Notes under the pieces: model-generated
What the model saw: the letters and a program-made list of their open reading frames with translations, nothing else
Databases searched by the model: none
Told to the model about the DNA's origin: nothing
Made by a program: the position numbers and the translations under genes
Shown here: positions 3,501-61,843 of the stretch, piece after piece
Layout: the number at the start of each line of letters is the position of its first letter
How positions within the stretch are numbered: the stretch's first letter is position 1
Assembly: GCA_048939625.1 (NCBI GenBank)
Contig: JBHLPH010000001.1
Location: 64,001-128,000 of the forward strand
Reading direction: 5' to 3'
Length of the DNA stretch: 64,000 bases
Origin: Promethearchaeota archaeon
GTDB lineage: Archaea; Asgardarchaeota; Hermodarchaeia; Hermodarchaeales; Hermodarchaeaceae

Positions 3501-5459
3501 AAAGTTCAACCCGTCAACCTGCCATAAAATTAGGATTATATCAACGCTTGATAAAAAATCACCAAAAATAACCGGTTCAGTTGCCCCACCCCAGCCCGTT
3601 AAACAATGAGTTAGATATTCGAGTAGAGTAGGTTCAGTAGTGCCTAATCCGCCAGTCAAGGCTAGCGCTTGGGCACCGTACCAAGTTTCATCGGGTGAAT
3701 TGTGAAAATCATGAAGCAAATCACCCCGTCCCCATCCTCCGTTAGGAAATTGATTTGTTAGAATATAGGTGCGACTAGCACTCGAATTGTATATGGGTAA
3801 TTTACCAAGAATAGAAAGGATTTGGAGAGCACAAGAAGTGCCAAGTATCCACTCATCTGAGTCCATGGAATATTTTGTATCGAAGACACTGCTTCCTATT
3901 GGTTCCTCACAGTTAGCAAGGAAAAGAAGAAGCGCCGTTTGATTGATGGCATCTAGTGCTTCAAGTTGAACAAGAGCCTTGAGTGCATGCAGAGTGTCAA
4001 TCAGGCTTGCGCTGAAGCTACCACTCGCTGAGGAATAGAAGCCACCGTATTCAGAATCTAGGGGATTAAGCTCTTGACAGGCAACCACAAAGTCGAGTGC
4101 AGCCTGAACATCAATGGCACTAAGTTGGTCAAGAGCTGATAGGCTTTCTAGCGCAAAACTGGTCGCGGCTAGGGTGGTCTGTTGTGCGTCGATTTCAGTG
4201 AAGAAGCCTCCTGAAATAGCATCTTGACATGAAGCTAGATACGCGCTGATTTGGGTCTGGTTAAATTGGTCAAGGATATTCAAATCCTTAGCCATGAGAA
4301 CACCCATGGCTGTGGTCATGCAACGATCGTTGAGCTGTGAACTTGCTAAATCTTCAAAGAAACCGAGAAGAGGATTATAACAGGTATTTAGCCATGATGC
4401 AAAACTGGAGATGTTCACAGCTAAATCAAAGGATTCAACCAAGTTGGTCACATAATACGAGAAGCGAAGCGATGGCTCAAGCGGATACCCAAACCCACCA
4501 GCACCTTGGATCTTCCAGTATCCTTCGGTTACATTCGAGGGTAATTGCCAATTGGAAAGCGTGTTTCCGAGCCGTTGTTGAAGGGTTGGACGGATTAACC
4601 AGTGTATGAGATTTTCACAAAACTGCTTGCCATGAATATTCAGGTTTTCTACTTGATTGATTCCCCAATAGTAAATGAAGGGAGTATTAACGAGTTTGCG
4701 GAACCAAAGGAGCTGAACACCAGACCCATCAAAGTTTGTTCCTAAAATTTCCGCTTTATCAGGTAATGCTGTTTTACGATAGGCATCGTAATGGACTAGT
4801 TGTGAATAGAGCCCATACCGTCCACTGCTTAGTGGAATGTTATGGGGAAGAGAGAAAATCTGAGAGCTATTAAGGGGTGACCAAAGATATCGTTCAACAG
4901 AGGGAATGAAGTGGGTCACTGGATTAAAACCATAAAGGCGATCTAGCACTTCATGACCATATCCGAGAAGTAAAAGTGGTTGGGAATAATTACTAAGAAT
5001 TTCCGCTGCATTCTGGCTAACGCCGAATGATGCATCACTTGTCCCTACACTCGGTGTAACGATGATTAGATCATTTCCTGAGGTATAGGTTAGGTTATTA
5101 ATGTGCGAGATAGTGGTATTGAAGCCTAGGTTTTGAAAGAAAGTGACCCAAACCTCTACTGGTTCCTGATGGGATTCATTTACATAATCACCATAGATAA
5201 GCATGAGATTACCGAAAGTGAGGAGGGATTGTGCGTTCTCCGGTGCTGGTAGTTCTCTGAAGGGTATTGCTGAATAAGGAGAATATGAAGAAGAGGTTGT
5301 AAGGGGTTGTTGGTATGCTTGAATTTCGTTGGGAGGTGATAATGCCCCCAATCTAGTCTCTGCTTCTTCGAAGAGAGTTAGAGGGTGACCACTAAGAAGA
5401 GGAAGAAGAAAAAGACAAAGGAAAATAATATGACGCAAACAGTATTTGTAACGGGACAT
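534..5459 (-). CDS. Large membrane-anchored surface protein with prenyltransferase/squalene-cyclase (alpha/alpha toroid) repeats and Ig-like domains
   Basis: Signal peptide; about 9 or more repeats of the type YLASCQDAISGGF / FVVACQ..GGFY / YILTNQFPNGGWG; beta-rich Ig-like C-half (TTNQTGLA, TDMWGEA, TDSMGIG); C-terminal TM helix and acidic tail. Confidence 0.8.
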   Translation of the reverse strand: MSRYKYCLRHIIFLCLFLLPLLSGHPLTLFEEAETRLGALSPPNEIQAYQQPLTTSSSYSPYSAIPFRELPAPENAQSLLTFGNLMLIYGDYVNESHQEPVEVWVTFFQNLGFNTTISHINNLTYTSGNDLIIVTPSVGTSDASFGVSQNAAEILSNYSQPLLLLGYGHEVLDRLYGFNPVTHFIPSVERYLWSPLNSSQIFSLPHNIPLSSGRYGLYSQLVHYDAYRKTALPDKAEILGTNFDGSGVQLLWFRKLVNTPFIYYWGINQVENLNIHGKQFCENLIHWLIRPTLQQRLGNTLSNWQLPSNVTEGYWKIQGAGGFGYPLEPSLRFSYYVTNLVESFDLAVNISSFASWLNTCYNPLLGFFEDLASSQLNDRCMTTAMGVLMAKDLNILDQFNQTQISAYLASCQDAISGGFFTEIDAQQTTLAATSFALESLSALDQLSAIDVQAALDFVVACQELNPLDSEYGGFYSSASGSFSASLIDTLHALKALVQLEALDAINQTALLLFLANCEEPIGSSVFDTKYSMDSDEWILGTSCALQILSILGKLPIYNSSASRTYILTNQFPNGGWGRGDLLHDFHNSPDETWYGAQALALTGGLGTTEPTLLEYLTHCLTGWGGATEPVIFGDFLSSVDIILILWQVDGLNFLNLSAFLSYLDNCWSTSRSSFVAHQLPSSIGIDTDSPTPDRIVLETGTFGPLYHYGYSQLMAKLGLNYEPWTTRAFHIRQEIEACQTTASEYTGMLGIHHLYVGHESDLTFRFDTTCWNLLAHQGLGGLPTDLNNASAILAYLTSCLQDNATHQYFQDLAHPIFLPAQWRAADEYLAETWLGLRAYAYLNPSLSGLNGDKLAMFAKQYIHGNASLISVYYATEILYFLVEMGLNPNAFQGPDWSIIHNRLLAAFSYEGLVTEPLLPKGKWIPYLISLGLELVQRMNLLSYLDVSPILHLTQISSPLGTVALGDPFALSATVIETRWGQLPEKIQIQTLLFNTTFLSSCGINPPGSFMLQELIPVNLNALGPQNLTLLAFSPGSIPAYSITSSFCTGWGVLSLNTTFVPGTLVPRSIPLNVTINVGLAGASLPQYPIANGEVVLTLLTTSVTYTASYAGSSQYHVSIPTQNLEPTSHILHVNASVPYCNFHTKTTQIMVIVFDTTLLVENILPETPVLFDPVAIEISLNNESGTKLTGFRVTFNFTRPGDSIPYHSDSLTTNQTGLALGSWTPDKVGQWQISVKFAECEMYNASQTTTMIQVSRRPLACTINILPSSTFFIGNQTNFQIKVSDALNGSLLPNLLVGLYEGEVLLVTASTDMWGEANCQWIAGGSLGYRDLHLMITETSTHDSWVSSSLQVLLRDTTSLSVSSNSTSVYAGDTIFIELTITTGMSLTPNGTAALYWDGVLRQHVTISNGYGEITLTTQYTEITGEHLIIVLFGQLDAPDIYHESQATLLITLQGVILPTLKLTVTPLEIEDILLQPTLQIEVQLSYTNETLSLGLVANLTVQLLSQDTTLLDTFIIKTDSMGIGQLTIMTPQPGIYTITVRFEGQRGFVPCQATTPLLVRNPLNRIGGVDTSLLIWSLIVMIFGVIIGAFLFIRQQKRLNDFLSRIRPSQKTILESSHELLQFLTNQPGETSSTDSLDDD

Positions 5460-17288: not shown

Positions 17289-17837
17289 CTACTTCAGATA
17301 CTTCTGGAGATGATCTTTGATTTCGGAAGGATGTTCCAAGATTATCATCCCTTCCATAGCTCGAAGCTTTTCGACATTCTCTAAATCGAGTTTCCGTGTC
17401 GTTAAATCTAACTTTTTTCCACTGGGTAGCACAGTGGTTACAGTGCCCGGTTTTTGGTCAACAGGGTAAATATAAATTGGCACACCTGTCTTCATGGCTT
17501 GAGCAACCGCGTTGGTCACAAGGGTGTCAGCGATGCCATAAGCAAGTTTTGCTACTGTATTAGCCGTTGCGGGCATCACAGCGATGAACTGATGCGTGCG
17601 CTTTTGGAGCGCCCCTACAATGAAAGGGGTGTTTGCATCAACTTCGGTGCGTATCTGCGAAGAAATTGATTCTAGGTCAGGGAGCAGTTTGTACCATTTG
17701 ATGACTTGCATTCCAGCCTTAGTTAAGAAGACGAGAATCTGCGCCTTGTACTGAGATACGATTTCTTGCATAACTTCAACCGATTCGCGTATGTAATCGC
17801 CTGCACCAGTAATCGCCCAAGCAAACTTCAACTGCAT
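17289..17837 (-). CDS. afpA: Archaeoflavoprotein AfpA (HFCD flavoprotein, dihydromethanopterin reductase-like)
   Basis: AWAITGAGD, PATANTVAKLAYGIADTLVTNAVAQ, PVDQ motifs. Confidence 0.85.
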   Translation of the reverse strand: MQLKFAWAITGAGDYIRESVEVMQEIVSQYKAQILVFLTKAGMQVIKWYKLLPDLESISSQIRTEVDANTPFIVGALQKRTHQFIAVMPATANTVAKLAYGIADTLVTNAVAQAMKTGVPIYIYPVDQKPGTVTTVLPSGKKLDLTTRKLDLENVEKLRAMEGMIILEHPSEIKDHLQKYLK

Positions 17838-30593: not shown

Positions 30594-31943
30594 ATGTCAG
30601 ATGAACAACCTTTAGAGAATCAAGTATGGCGTCCTGTTGTCACAGAACGCCGATGGAACTGGGTTGTCTCCGGATTCGTTAATCTCATTTTGATCCTACT
30701 GATTGCCCTCATCATCTGGTGGGTATTAGTCGATCCACGAATTGAATTCAGTGGTGTGCATAACTGGCTCTATACCTGGTATGCCTCAGTCATTGCCGGA
30801 TTTGGAATCCTTGCTGTTGTTGTGCAGATCTGGTTTGATCATTATCCCTACGGACGCTTCAGAGACATCTTCAGTCATGCAATGTGGGGAATCATCATCA
30901 ATATCCTCCTCGTAGCGTTAGCCATCGTCTTCTTCTGGTTTATCGTTGGACCCTTTATGATTCCAATGTTTAGTCCACTTGCACTCATGAACGTGCCAGA
31001 TCCCATCTTCCTAGATCCCGATATGATTGTGTTCCTCTCTGCTAGTGCAATGGGAACAATCCTATCTTGTGGTTTCTCCTTTGCAGCCATCTGGGTCGCA
31101 GGCGGAATGTTCTGGCCTTTCACTGAACTGAAGCCCGTCAAACGAGGATTTGCCGTCTTCACTGTAGCCGCGATTATTACGGCCATCGCCTGGTTCATCC
31201 TCTACTGGCCCTATCAGATTCTGACCGCCGTACCACCCTTACCCTCCGTAGTGACTTGGACTATATGGACTGCGGTCCCAATCTGGGCTCTCTACGACCC
31301 CATCATCGGAGTCACTAATTGGGGGGCATACATTTCACTAAACTTCACACAGTGGATCATTGTATTTGGTCTACTGACCTTGATGACCTATGAGTATGGT
31401 CCGTGGAATCGTCTTGGGAAGCAACCATGGATAGGACTTGGCGCTTTAATCGGCTCTATCGTTCTTGGTGCGCTATTCTCACTCTACCTCATGCCGTATC
31501 TGATTCTACCAACATTGCTTCCTGGGCTTAATGTATCAGGCACCATGTTTGAGTACCACGCTACATCAGTGCAGATTGCTGTCTGGATTTTACTAATGAT
31601 CGTCATCTGGACCTATTACTTCAGTAACAAACCCACCCGATTCCACCCTGCAGTGAATAACCTATTACGCACTTTAGCTATCGTGTTCTTTGCGATTGTC
31701 GCGTATATTCTGTTCTGGTTCATTGCACCTATATTGATTGGCGAGACCGCACTGGTTGCTACGCAGAATCCTGTTCGTTGGGTTCTTTGGCTACTCTGGT
31801 TTATGCTTCTTCACATCTACATAATGAAGCGGTGGCCAGGGTGGAAGATAGTCAGCTTTGCTGAAGGAAAACACCGAAAACCCAAACCGGAATCCGAACC
31901 TCAACCTGAAGCGGAAGAGATGCCAGAATCTGGATTCGAATAA
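30594..31943 (+). CDS. Polytopic membrane protein, putative amine/amino-acid transporter
   Basis: About 11-12 TM; DPR, recurring YPY/WPF/GPW motifs and C-terminal WPGWK, recalled from a family annotated as AAT-type transporters. Confidence 0.65.
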   Translation: MSDEQPLENQVWRPVVTERRWNWVVSGFVNLILILLIALIIWWVLVDPRIEFSGVHNWLYTWYASVIAGFGILAVVVQIWFDHYPYGRFRDIFSHAMWGIIINILLVALAIVFFWFIVGPFMIPMFSPLALMNVPDPIFLDPDMIVFLSASAMGTILSCGFSFAAIWVAGGMFWPFTELKPVKRGFAVFTVAAIITAIAWFILYWPYQILTAVPPLPSVVTWTIWTAVPIWALYDPIIGVTNWGAYISLNFTQWIIVFGLLTLMTYEYGPWNRLGKQPWIGLGALIGSIVLGALFSLYLMPYLILPTLLPGLNVSGTMFEYHATSVQIAVWILLMIVIWTYYFSNKPTRFHPAVNNLLRTLAIVFFAIVAYILFWFIAPILIGETALVATQNPVRWVLWLLWFMLLHIYIMKRWPGWKIVSFAEGKHRKPKPESEPQPEAEEMPESGFE

Positions 31944-46656: not shown

Positions 46657-49470
46657 TTGGTAACAACTAATTTGGATCAAATTTTTAATCCCAAGAGTAT
46701 TGCCCTCATTGGCGCTAGCGAAGAGGAGGGATCAGTAGGGCAAATTCTCATGCGTAATTTAACGATGATTGCATTACATGAAAAGGTCTTTCCAATTAAT
46801 ATTCGTCACAAAGAAGTAATGGGCATCAAGACTTTTGCCAAGGTGGGCGACGTCCCTGAACCCATTGATTTAGCTATAATCGCGACTCCAGCAAAAACCG
46901 TGCCTGGGATTGTGGAAGAATGTGGACAAGCAGGAATCAAGGGAATAATCATCATCTCTGCAGGGTTCAAAGAAATCGGCTCTGAAGGCCTCGCCCTTGA
47001 GAAGGAATTAATCGAACTTAAACGAAAATATAACCTTCGAATAATTGGACCGAACTGCTTTGGTATCATCCGTCCGAGCATCCAACTAAATGCAACCTTT
47101 GCAGAAGCGATGCCAAAAGCAGGAAACATTGCATTCATTTCTCAGAGTGGAGCATTGGGTTCAGCTATCATCGATTGGGCACTTAGCCAAAATCTAGGAT
47201 TCAGTAATTTCGTTTCGGTCGGTTCGATGATCGATGTGGATTTTGGAGATTTGATCGACTATTTTGGAACCGATCCCCAAACGCGAAGCATAATTTTGTA
47301 TATTGAAGGCATAACTGATGCAAGGAAATTCATGAGTGCAGCCCGCCATTTTGCAAAAACCAAACCCATTATCGTAGTAAAGGCAGGTAAATATGGTGAA
47401 AGTGCCAAGGCTGCGGCATCTCACACAGGATCATTAACCGGTTCAGATTTGGTTTACGATGCAGCATTTAAACGGGCAGGCATTGTCCGAATCGAAGAAA
47501 TTTCGGATCTCTTTAATGCCGCAGAAACCTTGGGGATGCAACCATTACCTGGAGGCTCGCATCTAGCCATTATTACAAATGCGGGGGGTCCCGGAGTGAT
47601 GGCTGCGGATGCGTTACTCCAAAGAGGAGGAAAACTCGCACAGCTTTCAGAAGCTACAATAAAAGAATTGGATAAGATTTTACCGCCGTTTTGGAGCCGA
47701 GGGAACCCTATTGATATTCTTGGTGATGCTGATGCGCAGCGTTACCGCGAAACGATGAGTATATGTTTGGCTGACAAAAACGTTGATGGAATCCTGCTTA
47801 TTTATACACCACAAGCAATTGCGGCTGCAGAAACAATCGCGAAGAATATCGTTTCGGCTTGTGACGCCCGTGGAGGCTGCGAAAAGACTATTTTGACTTC
47901 TTTCATGGGTGGGAACAAAGTTGAGAAGGCAAACCAAATTTTCACAGAAAACGGATACCCCACCTATTGGACACCCGAACATGCTGTTGCCACTTACATG
48001 TACATGTACCAGTATAAGCGAAATCTTGAATTATTATACGAAACCCCAGAAGAACTACCCATTGAGAGTGCTCCACCAAAACGTCCTATTACGGTGCTTT
48101 TACGGAATGCTGCTAAGCAGAAACGTGAGATCCTTACTGAAGTTGAAGCCAAACAACTTTTAGAATTCAACAATATCCCAGTGGTAAAAACCCGAATCGC
48201 CAATTCCGTGGATGAAGCTGCCGCCGTAGCCGCCACAATAGGGTATCCTGTCGTCTTAAAGATTCATTCACCAGATATCACACACAAATCTGATGCGGGT
48301 GGAGTGAAACTCAATCTTCATGACGATAACGAAGTCCGTAATGCCTACAACGCCATTATCGAAGCAGCGAAAGCACACAACCCAACAGCGAAGATCCAAG
48401 GCGTGACAGTTCAGGCAATGATTGAGCCAACAGGAACTGAAGTGATTCTAGGCGCAAAACGCGACCCGCTCTTTGGACCTGTCATACTCTTTGGAATGGG
48501 AGGTGTCGGTGTCGAGTTTTTCAATGATGTATCACTTGGTTTTCCTCCTCTTAATCAAACCCTTGCTCGACGCATCATGGAGGACACCCGAGTGTACGAA
48601 GTTCTGGTCAAAGGATATCGGCGGATTCCTCCTGTAAATCTAAAATTACTGGAAGAACTCATTGTTCGCTTCTCTCAAATGATTGTTGATTTTCCTGAAA
48701 TTAAAGAACTGGACATAAATCCCCTGCTTGTTGATGATAAACACGTCATTGCCCTTGACGCGCGCGTGGTTATCGATTTATCGCGAATTGAAAAAAAAGG
48801 AGACAGCCCACAGGAACTGGTAATTAGTCCCTATCCAAAACGGTATGAACAGATTTGGCGAATACGTGATGGGCGAACGGTCTTATTCCGTGCTATCAAA
48901 CCTGAAGATGAACCGCTTTGGTTGGAAATGTTTCAGAACTTTTCTGAAGAATCGATTCGCTACCGGTTTTTCGAAATTATCAAAGATACTCCCCATGAAG
49001 TACGAATACGATATACTAACATCGATTATGACCGTGAAATCGCGATCGTACCAATCCTTAATGAAAGAGGAAAAGACCGAATTCTTGGTGTGGTGCGATT
49101 AATTGAAGAACCCGATGGGAAACGTGGAGAAATCGCCTTCATCATTGCTGATCCGTGGCAAGGTCTTGGCCTTGGCTCGAAGCTGATTGATTATATGATT
49201 GAAATTTCAATCGACCGAGGATTGGAAGAAATCTATGGAGTGATGCTTCCCGATAACTATCGAGCCCATAAGCTAATGCAAAAGATGGGATTTACACTCG
49301 AAAAGACAAAAGATGACTTGGTCAAAGCTACGCTTGATTTAGCCGCAGAAAGGCGATGGAGAACGCCACGAGAATTTCGACCAAGCGCAGAACCAGAAAA
49401 TGAAGCTGAAGCACCCAAGAAAGGTGTTCAGTCAAAAAAGAAACGAACAAAAAAAGCAAAAAAGCCCTGA
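46657..49470 (+). CDS. ADP-forming acyl-CoA ligase (alpha+beta) fused to GNAT (Pat-type protein acetyltransferase)
   Basis: IFNPKSIALIGAS, GPNC, SQSGA, SHTG, TNAGG, HKSDAGGV, DINPL, and C-terminal GNAT WQGLGLG; TTG start (46651 or 46657) after AGGAG. Confidence 0.9.
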   Translation: MVTTNLDQIFNPKSIALIGASEEEGSVGQILMRNLTMIALHEKVFPINIRHKEVMGIKTFAKVGDVPEPIDLAIIATPAKTVPGIVEECGQAGIKGIIIISAGFKEIGSEGLALEKELIELKRKYNLRIIGPNCFGIIRPSIQLNATFAEAMPKAGNIAFISQSGALGSAIIDWALSQNLGFSNFVSVGSMIDVDFGDLIDYFGTDPQTRSIILYIEGITDARKFMSAARHFAKTKPIIVVKAGKYGESAKAAASHTGSLTGSDLVYDAAFKRAGIVRIEEISDLFNAAETLGMQPLPGGSHLAIITNAGGPGVMAADALLQRGGKLAQLSEATIKELDKILPPFWSRGNPIDILGDADAQRYRETMSICLADKNVDGILLIYTPQAIAAAETIAKNIVSACDARGGCEKTILTSFMGGNKVEKANQIFTENGYPTYWTPEHAVATYMYMYQYKRNLELLYETPEELPIESAPPKRPITVLLRNAAKQKREILTEVEAKQLLEFNNIPVVKTRIANSVDEAAAVAATIGYPVVLKIHSPDITHKSDAGGVKLNLHDDNEVRNAYNAIIEAAKAHNPTAKIQGVTVQAMIEPTGTEVILGAKRDPLFGPVILFGMGGVGVEFFNDVSLGFPPLNQTLARRIMEDTRVYEVLVKGYRRIPPVNLKLLEELIVRFSQMIVDFPEIKELDINPLLVDDKHVIALDARVVIDLSRIEKKGDSPQELVISPYPKRYEQIWRIRDGRTVLFRAIKPEDEPLWLEMFQNFSEESIRYRFFEIIKDTPHEVRIRYTNIDYDREIAIVPILNERGKDRILGVVRLIEEPDGKRGEIAFIIADPWQGLGLGSKLIDYMIEISIDRGLEEIYGVMLPDNYRAHKLMQKMGFTLEKTKDDLVKATLDLAAERRWRTPREFRPSAEPENEAEAPKKGVQSKKKRTKKAKKP

Positions 49471-60635: not shown

Positions 60636-61154
60636 TTAGGCATTTTCAAGAAGTGTCGAGATGTTTAAGCCTTTGCCGATGTCACCGAGGTAGCGGATGA
60701 ATTGGATGAGAAGTTGGTCGAGCCCAAGAGCGCGGTGGGCTTGGGTGGGAAAGACCGGTGCCTGGATATTCATTAGAGTTTCGATTTGTTTAGGATGGAT
60801 AGCACCGGGGAGGTCTTGTTTGTTCGCGGCAACCGCGACTGGTGGTGGGTTGGGTCCGAAAATCTCGCGAAGATAGCGTTCGCCTTGGATAATTGTGTGG
60901 GGATTAGCACTGTCGACGACGAGGATGACACCGTCGGTTCCGCTGGAGAGGGCTTTGCGGACTAGACCAAATTGTTGGAGACCAGGGCTGCCAAATAGAT
61001 GCGCTTTGAACTCGCGATATTCAAGCGTCCCAAAATCTAAGCAAACCGTGCAACCGTTTACCTCGGTGGAAATGGCGTGATTGCTGACGCTTTGAATAAG
61101 AGTGGTTTTGCCGACGCCTTGAGGTCCTATGACAAGGATTTTCAGATGCCGCAT
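60636..61154 (-). CDS. Small GTPase (MglA-like / Ras superfamily)
   Basis: G1 GPQGVGKTT, TVCLDFG, G3 GSPGLQQF, G4 NKQD. Confidence 0.9.
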   Translation of the reverse strand: MRHLKILVIGPQGVGKTTLIQSVSNHAISTEVNGCTVCLDFGTLEYREFKAHLFGSPGLQQFGLVRKALSSGTDGVILVVDSANPHTIIQGERYLREIFGPNPPPVAVAANKQDLPGAIHPKQIETLMNIQAPVFPTQAHRALGLDQLLIQFIRYLGDIGKGLNISTLLENA

Positions 61155-61212
61155 GGTGCTACCCCCTAATGGTTAAGCCGTGGGTTGTGTGGTCTTAAGC
61201 CTTAAGGTTTAT

Positions 61213-61483
61213 GTTTTCACGCGATTTCCGCACTCTTTAGTGGAGTACCGAAGTAAATGGGTCGCTGGAAATCCGCGCGGTAACAGCAAGCGTGTTGGGC
61301 GATGGAGGGATGTTGAGGTTGGAAAATTGGGATTAGTTCATGCGAGGAGGAGGGGAGGGAAATATTGGGATAGGAGGGAGTTCCGGGTTCCTCAACATCC
61401 TATCTCCGCGGTTTTGCGTATTGGGGCTTTTTGTCGGCTTGTTACTCTTAAGCCTTACGGCTCAGAGATCATAACGTGAAGAC
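61213..61483. ncRNA. Candidate structured non-coding RNA (unassigned)
   Basis: Nested long-range stems: 61213-61221/61475-61483, 61280-61291/61437-61445, and a perfect 11 bp at 61308-61318/61390-61400; local tetraloop hairpins. Strand unresolved. Confidence 0.55.
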
Positions 61484-61513: not shown

Positions 61514-61843
61514 TCATTCCTCGACGTAAACGACGGTTACGTATTCGATGATTGCAAATCGGTCTTTGCTTCGTGAAATGAGTTTGAGATCCTCGCGAAG
61601 AGCATTTAGGTGAAGGAACCGTTTCAGATAGGTTCGTAGCTGGGTTTTACTTGGGTGGTTGGCAGTGTCACTTCGTATATAGACTTCGTTGTCGGATACT
61701 GTAACTGTGATGTCATTAGCGAGTTTCTCGCTGAGAAAGTTAACCATTGCTGTACCTAGCTCATTGCCATGATTGAGCATATTTTGGATTTCAATAGTGA
61801 TGAAAGTTTTACTAGATTCTGGTTCCGTTGTGGATTTGGACAT
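61514..61843 (-). CDS. rpl22e: Ribosomal protein eL22 (L22e)-like
   Basis: ITIEI...NFLSEKL...SKTQLRTYLKRFLHLNALREDLKLISRSKDRFAI matches the eL22 pattern (SKRYLKYLTKKYLKK..LRDWLRVVA..K..YEL). Confidence 0.75.
   Translation of the reverse strand: MSKSTTEPESSKTFITIEIQNMLNHGNELGTAMVNFLSEKLANDITVTVSDNEVYIRSDTANHPSKTQLRTYLKRFLHLNALREDLKLISRSKDRFAIIEYVTVVYVEE

Follow-up and report, generated by a model that had tools for sequence, protein, structure and literature searches.

Related RNA systems and the present element

To our knowledge, the EndA substrates known outside tRNA and rRNA are few, i.e., cbf5, HVO_1309 and the SRP RNA of Thermoproteus tenax. The archaeal splicing endonuclease recognises a motif termed hBHBh' (PMC7714728, PMC4090602). 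In T. tenax, a BHB forms from the leader and the trailer of the SRP RNA; after EndA cleavage the molecule is circularised by the joining of its ends (Plagens et al. 2015, PMC4731332). The intron of tRNA-Trp is a circular C/D guide RNA (PMC7714728, PMC4090602), and BHB introns have been described in the 5' UTR of Haloferax HVO_1309 (PMC7714728) and in the cbf5 mRNA. A different kind of RNA, the Cuckoo/CcsR sRNAs of Alphaproteobacteria, carries CCUCC-type anti-SD-like motifs in its loops (PMC4615179).

The element described here lies between the genes for eL22 and a small GTPase, and it resembles each of these RNAs in part. As with the SRP RNA of T. tenax, it appears to be a stand-alone gene with a TATA promoter and a short leader; however, it is devoid of SRP motifs, is unpermuted, would give a circle of 100 nt, belongs to a multi-copy family and has a C/U-rich loop. 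It shares with HVO_1309 and cbf5 a BHB that is found outside tRNA and rRNA and precedes a protein gene encoded on the same strand; unlike in those cases, conservation lies in the piece that would be excised, and a separate promoter serves the gene downstream. The tRNA-Trp intron offers the parallel of a functional circle of about 100 nt released by EndA and RtcB, whereas here the circle is predicted and the RNA has neither tRNA exons nor C/D boxes; indeed, no C/D or H/ACA guide RNA boxes were seen in the alignment. Anti-SD-like loop motifs also occur here, but Cuckoo RNAs consist of 2-4 adjacent hairpins each with CCUCCUCCC, whereas the present RNA has one large loop, different motifs, a BHB and no Rfam match. 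No paper describing this RNA family was found in the literature.

The absence of RNase P and SRP signatures had been remarked on in a sequence-only reading of this DNA, and the searches agree with it. Rfam returned nothing for the element at E values up to 10; neither RNase P RNA (RF00373), whose real gene is located at G000:C62, nor SRP RNA (RF01857, helix 8 motifs) matched at the element. In 12 of 14 congeners the SRP RNA was detected at a place other than the element, and the relatives that carry the element have their SRP RNA elsewhere. In genome G000 itself, whose assembly is 88% complete, matches to SRP RNA and to 16S/23S rRNA were not found. The 16S rRNA genes of Hermodarchaeia (L083, L084, L085, L088, L091) contain up to five insertions of 32-870 nt with intron-type ends, one of which sits in helix 45 near the 3' end.

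Genomic setting and promoter

In the window, i.e., the whole 64,000-nt stretch of DNA that was analysed (G000:C9:64001-128000), the upstream neighbour of the element is the eL22 gene (61514..61843, minus strand; PF01776, E 4.6e-7) and the downstream neighbour is a small GTPase gene (60636..61154, minus strand; Arf/Ras-type Pfam matches), which bears out the flanking genes proposed earlier. Switch I of this GTPase reads NGCTVCLDFG, with two Cys, and NGSTVGLDFG in L056; genes for a thioredoxin and a roadblock protein come after it. The relatives that have names belong to Hermodarchaeota/Hermodarchaeum, which are Asgard archaea. The eL22-GTPase intergenic region measures 364-387 nt and can be aligned across 14 genomes of the genus. 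The element is present at this locus in 14 of 15 genomes of the Hermodarchaeum genus and in one distant relative, L056. In the sister genus the eL22-GTPase adjacency is kept with a spacer of 136-149 nt and the element is absent; the element is not tied to eL22 and does not need it.

Column identities given below come from the alignment of 16 homologues, structure measures from 17 sequences, and the retention of base pairs from 13 congeneric homologues. A BRE and TATA promoter, P1, was recognised at 61446..61461 of the minus strand (89% column identity in 16 homologues). The same letters had been read as a GUAA hairpin (61450-61463, minus strand); such a hairpin can be drawn and keeps 69-78% of its pairs, but it overlies the conserved BRE/TATA GCCRYAAGGYTTAA, and the variation of GCCRYAAGGYTTAA among homologues breaks the stem. 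P1 resembles the promoters found ahead of the tRNA genes of this genome, and its TATA box lies at a nearly constant distance from the central helix of the BHB: 45 nt here and in L056, 44 nt in paralogue B2, and 46 nt in the copy from family f12. A conserved promoter-proximal CCGACAAAAA is found at 61428..61437 (minus strand) in the homologue alignment. Given this promoter-like sequence the element is presumably transcribed, and from the TATA spacing transcription would start near 61423.

The suggestion that the element is a cis-acting site bound by eL22 found no support, since it lies downstream of eL22 with a promoter of its own, the sister genus has the gene pair without it, and the G-C-necked hairpin followed by U that characterises eL22 binding (PMC3750023) was predicted in just one of 16 homologues.

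A conserved hairpin core

Judging from its conservation, the element is a real RNA gene absent from Rfam, encoded on the minus strand as a hairpin of about 120 nt (61296-61415). The earlier proposal of a novel Asgard ncRNA is thus upheld in kind, but not in extent, strand or architecture, given that the element is a BHB-closed hairpin and not a rod with side hairpins. Likewise, of the structured element of about 270 nt, the conserved non-coding element is real, whereas its core is only about 120 nt long and there is no 270-nt rod on the plus strand. Read on the minus strand, the core consists of an outer stem, GGAG, AUA, GGAUG, a large C/U-rich loop, CAUCC, CUCC, AUC and the outer stem.

The motifs quoted in the sequence-only reading are all present where it placed them in the window, and the comparison of syntenic regions that it called for separates them clearly: the central helix holds with double changes, while the other proposed helices fail. 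The 11-bp helix GGATGTTGAGG (61308-61318) / CCTCAACATCC (61390-61400) keeps 85-88% of its pairs. The end helix GTTTTCACG (61213-61221) / CGTGAAGAC (61475-61483), the helix GTAAC..AAGC (61280-61291) / GCTTGTTAC (61437-61445) and the UUCG hairpin (61246-61255, minus strand) can all be drawn here, but they retain only 32-40%, 41-54% and 36-41% of their pairs, respectively, and are therefore regarded as incidental. With outer helices that keep only 32-54% of their pairs, and with no Rfam match, a 6S-like rod with a bubble is not supported either.

The 11-bp helix constitutes the inner stem of the core, with its 5' strand at 61390..61400 and its 3' strand at 61308..61318 of the minus strand, and double changes in 6 of 11 pairs. 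Over the 17 sequences, 85.8% of cells are paired and double changes occur at 9 of 22 pairs; slid registers pair just 46-54% of cells. In a shuffle test, four of five measures were reached by 0-1 of 500 shuffles and the fifth, the count of pair types, by 257 of 500; the significance of this test is overstated because the sequences are related. Folding of single sequences gave modest z-scores (-0.4 to -3.0), and the 301-nt region folded modestly better than its shuffles on the minus strand (z -2.05) and no better on the plus strand (z 0.58). In the distant copy L056, whose eL22 is 61% identical, the synteny is the same, the inner stem is re-written and the outer stem has 5 bp. An alternative stem, GAUAGGA/UCCUAUC, was discarded: it shows zero compensatory changes and is broken where its positions vary.

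Within the large loop two motifs stand out, GGAACUCCCUCCUAUCCC at 61367..61384 (97% column identity) and UCCCCUCCUCCUCGCAU at 61338..61358 (92%), both on the minus strand. The first could form an invariant GGA/UCC mini-hairpin; invariant pairs are uninformative on structure. A U-rich tract (61321..61328, minus strand) precedes the 3' strand of the stem and occurs in related RNAs too, and a partly conserved CGCGCGGAUUUCC box lies in the trailer (61267..61279, minus strand; 87% identity within the genus), and was not recognisable in L053 or L056.

The element could also be read as coding sequence. A polyproline leader peptide (SD GGAG, AUG at 61398, MLRNPELPPIPIFPSPPPRMN) would then control the GTPase through ribosome stalling, and the AUG is present in 12 of 16 homologues, with an in-frame SPPP in most of them and in L056. 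Against this, the start codon is lost in four homologues, the frame is shifted in four, the length ranges from 20 to at least 60 codons, and the peptide is absent from the paralogues. Moreover, synonymous change is nearly lacking at the Pro codons, a sign that selection acts on the nucleotides. We regard such a peptide as very improbable.

The BHB base and the predicted circle

By its aligned geometry, the base of the element is a canonical hBHBh' motif. Its 5' strand (61401..61409, minus strand) comprises the outer GC, the GGAG of the central helix (61407-61404) and the bulge AUA (61403-61401), whereas its 3' strand (61299..61307, minus strand) comprises the CUCC of the central helix (61307-61304), the bulge AUC (61303-61301) and the outer GC. 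The central helix of 4 bp has 97% of its cells paired and is complete in 15 of 17 sequences; two copies have an A-C pair within it. Both bulges are exactly 3 nt long in all 17 sequences, with varying letters. The flanking helices, of 4-11 bp on the inner side and 2-5 bp on the outer side in 16 of 17 sequences, show compensatory changes; the outer one is reduced to 2 bp in many copies and to 1 bp in L050. A loose genome-wide BHB scan gave 4 matches against 5 for the mirror geometry, hence geometry in one genome alone does not discriminate and the argument rests on conservation.

The strand follows from the same geometry. In all 17 sequences the two bulges lie on opposite strands, and only when the minus strand is read does each fall 3' of the central helix; this polarity matches the 16S intron junctions of the same lineage, and thus the BHB fits the minus strand alone. 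The claim that G-U pairs favour the plus strand proved weak: the minus strand has 8 G-U against 12 A-C cells, counts that do not favour the minus strand either, and part of the imbalance reflects a register shift. A plus-strand RNA or DNA element, i.e., a GGAG-repeat sponge or a G-quadruplex, would stand near that earlier strand call, as the 12 A-C cells become G-U on the plus strand, the repeats are G-rich, and a TATA-like sequence lies on the plus strand near 61205. Nevertheless, the G4 pattern occurs in just 6 of 17 homologues, the TATA-like sequence of the plus strand degenerates (to TTTG in many) and is missing in L056, and the bulges would form a mirror image without a known reader, so that we give this possibility hardly any credence.

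From the BHB geometry, cuts are predicted after the second base of each bulge (61402/61401 and 61302/61301, minus strand), releasing a piece of 100 nt (61302..61401, minus strand). The genome encodes RtcB and two genes of the EndA family, at C38:8695 and C46:2767 of G000. By analogy with the SRP RNA of T. tenax (PMC4731332), the RNA is probably excised and ligated into a 100-nt ring that shows the conserved C-rich loop. The predicted junction loop (61302-61307 joined to 61401) reads CUCCAUA and resembles the anticodon loop of Trp (CU-CCA); this likeness is probably a coincidence of the BHB geometry, because paralogue B reads CGCUAUA.

The same motif could instead mark an intron within an extended 5' leader that the GTPase-thioredoxin-roadblock mRNA would carry, whose splicing would drop the anti-SD and turn translation on, leaving the circle as a by-product. 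HVO_1309 sets a precedent (PMC7714728), the GTPase gene is on the same strand, the interval that separates it from the BHB shows no conserved terminator, and the loop could mask the GTPase SD. However, conservation peaks inside the excised piece (85% column identity, versus 73% in the leader and 60% in the trailer), and a separate, highly conserved BRE/TATA promoter, P2 (61192..61210, minus strand; 97% identity), with a TATA-like core in L056 too, serves the GTPase gene. In addition, the paralogues stand alone with their own terminators and the element is absent at this place in the sister genus. A spliced leader is accordingly an unlikely explanation, although it is one of the two main rivals of a trans-acting circle.

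Related RNAs in this genome and in other Asgard archaea

A paralogue, B, was detected at G000:C58:61957-62048 on the minus strand (R2 model, 34.9 bits, E 2.5e-6). It is found in both genera, with an invariant loop of about 50 nt, and a hairpin and a U-tract come next on the same strand; its junction, GG(A/C)G-ANA-GGAU, is the same as in this copy. Further copies with a BHB or near-BHB stem and a C-rich loop lie in C31 (~17600-17710 and ~47100-47190, both minus strand) and C75 (~5010-5100, plus strand). RNA C (C58, ~65950-66170; minus strand at 65950-65985) and a possible RNA D (C40, ~4640-4770, minus strand) each have a stem and a C-rich loop but lack a BHB, and one more stem and C-rich-loop element lies in C81 (~31130-31260). 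L187 (G018:C88:230-4350) contains five repeats of the 3' half of paralogue B, each beside different cargo genes; the repeats begin inside a 7-nt loop that an inverted repeat borders, and the arrangement resembles an integration site that has grown by tandem accretion, as happens at tRNA genes.

Candidate relatives were recognised in two other Asgard families. Family f12, probably Atabeyarchaeia and represented by two complete 2.8-Mb genomes, has a copy with a perfect BHB and a TATA box 46 nt ahead; G049 (L135, L137, L140) contains the f12 element in several copies, whether full, degenerate or truncated. In one genus of family f6, probably Thorarchaeia, 18 of 28 genomes have a promoter-led stem with the same two loop motifs, mostly without a BHB, which implies that circularisation is not required family-wide. 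These distant assignments are based on weak scores of 10-28 bits together with the order of promoter and motifs. Rfam gave no match for the related RNAs at E values up to 1-5. The distribution is a lower bound, given that filtering caused known members (e.g., L114:1884-1995) to be missed when 150 Asgard genomes were searched with the CM. Weak matches in L119, L120, L125-L131, L133, L142 and L143 were not accepted, since most lie within ORFs or are stemless.

The other main rival is a linear small RNA that acts as a protein scaffold, e.g., for Sm-like or poly(C)-binding proteins, with the bulged helix as an uncut protein site. The continuous stem of the f6 relatives begins at the predicted start site, the U-tract precedes the 3' strand of the stem, and this copy has yielded no RNA target, all of which would suit such an RNA. 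What it leaves unaccounted for is the exact 3/4/3 BHB with correct polarity, which is retained in A, B, B2 and the f12 copy despite differing letters, and we therefore hold an uncut linear RNA to be quite improbable, slightly more so than a spliced leader.

Possible targets of the loop and a proposed mechanism

Genome-wide, the best non-self partner for the invariant loop of paralogue B lies in the 3' domain of RNA C (-42 kcal/mol). The complementarity spans about 19-27 bp (also in L188, L177 and L114), and 11 of 12 C homologues, from both genera, preserve the pairing at -33 to -50 kcal/mol; the conservation of RNA C could partly stem from its own local hairpin. This complementarity to a neighbouring RNA suggests that the loops may work by base-pairing. 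For the loop of the present copy, pairing is stronger with start regions (-11.6) than it is with coding windows (-10.0), and the SD motifs GGAGG/GGTGA are in use in the genome. Searches of rRNA, of rtcB and of the whole genome gave no specific conserved target for this copy: matches of the loop motifs to rRNA reach at most 9-10 nt, i.e., chance level, and an rtcB mRNA site for both loop motifs is not conserved at synonymous positions.

We consider it probable that the element is a stand-alone small RNA gene of the minus strand, driven by P1 and processed through its BHB into a trans-acting circle of 100 nt. P1 would transcribe a precursor, with about 20 nt of leader, that would fold into a hairpin closed by the hBHBh' base; this base is shown by covariation and geometry. 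As in the processing of archaeal tRNA and rRNA, EndA would sever each bulge behind its second base, and the inner 100 nt would then be joined into a ring by RtcB. This ring would consist of the 11-bp stem capped by the 7-nt junction loop, keeping open a C/U-rich single-stranded loop of about 70 nt, which the circular form may shield from exonucleases. Tentatively, the most likely role of the loop would be pairing in trans with G/A-rich RNA, e.g., SD-type sites or a partner RNA. A circle that pairs in trans is favoured by the pairing of B with C and by that with SD regions, with no specific target having survived for this copy.

This reading predicts exact cut sites and an exact junction sequence, with CUCCAU joined to AGGAUG, as well as a named RNA partner for paralogue B. 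In a broader and rather doubtful extension, Asgard archaea would use the tRNA-splicing machinery for a family of small RNAs made specifically as circles, whose conserved C/U-rich loops would pair both among themselves, as B with C in a manner loosely reminiscent of U4/U6, and with other RNAs, forming an RNA-RNA network. If true, a multi-copy gene family dedicated to circles of 80-100 nt would mean programmed circular RNAs in the archaea closest to eukaryotes.
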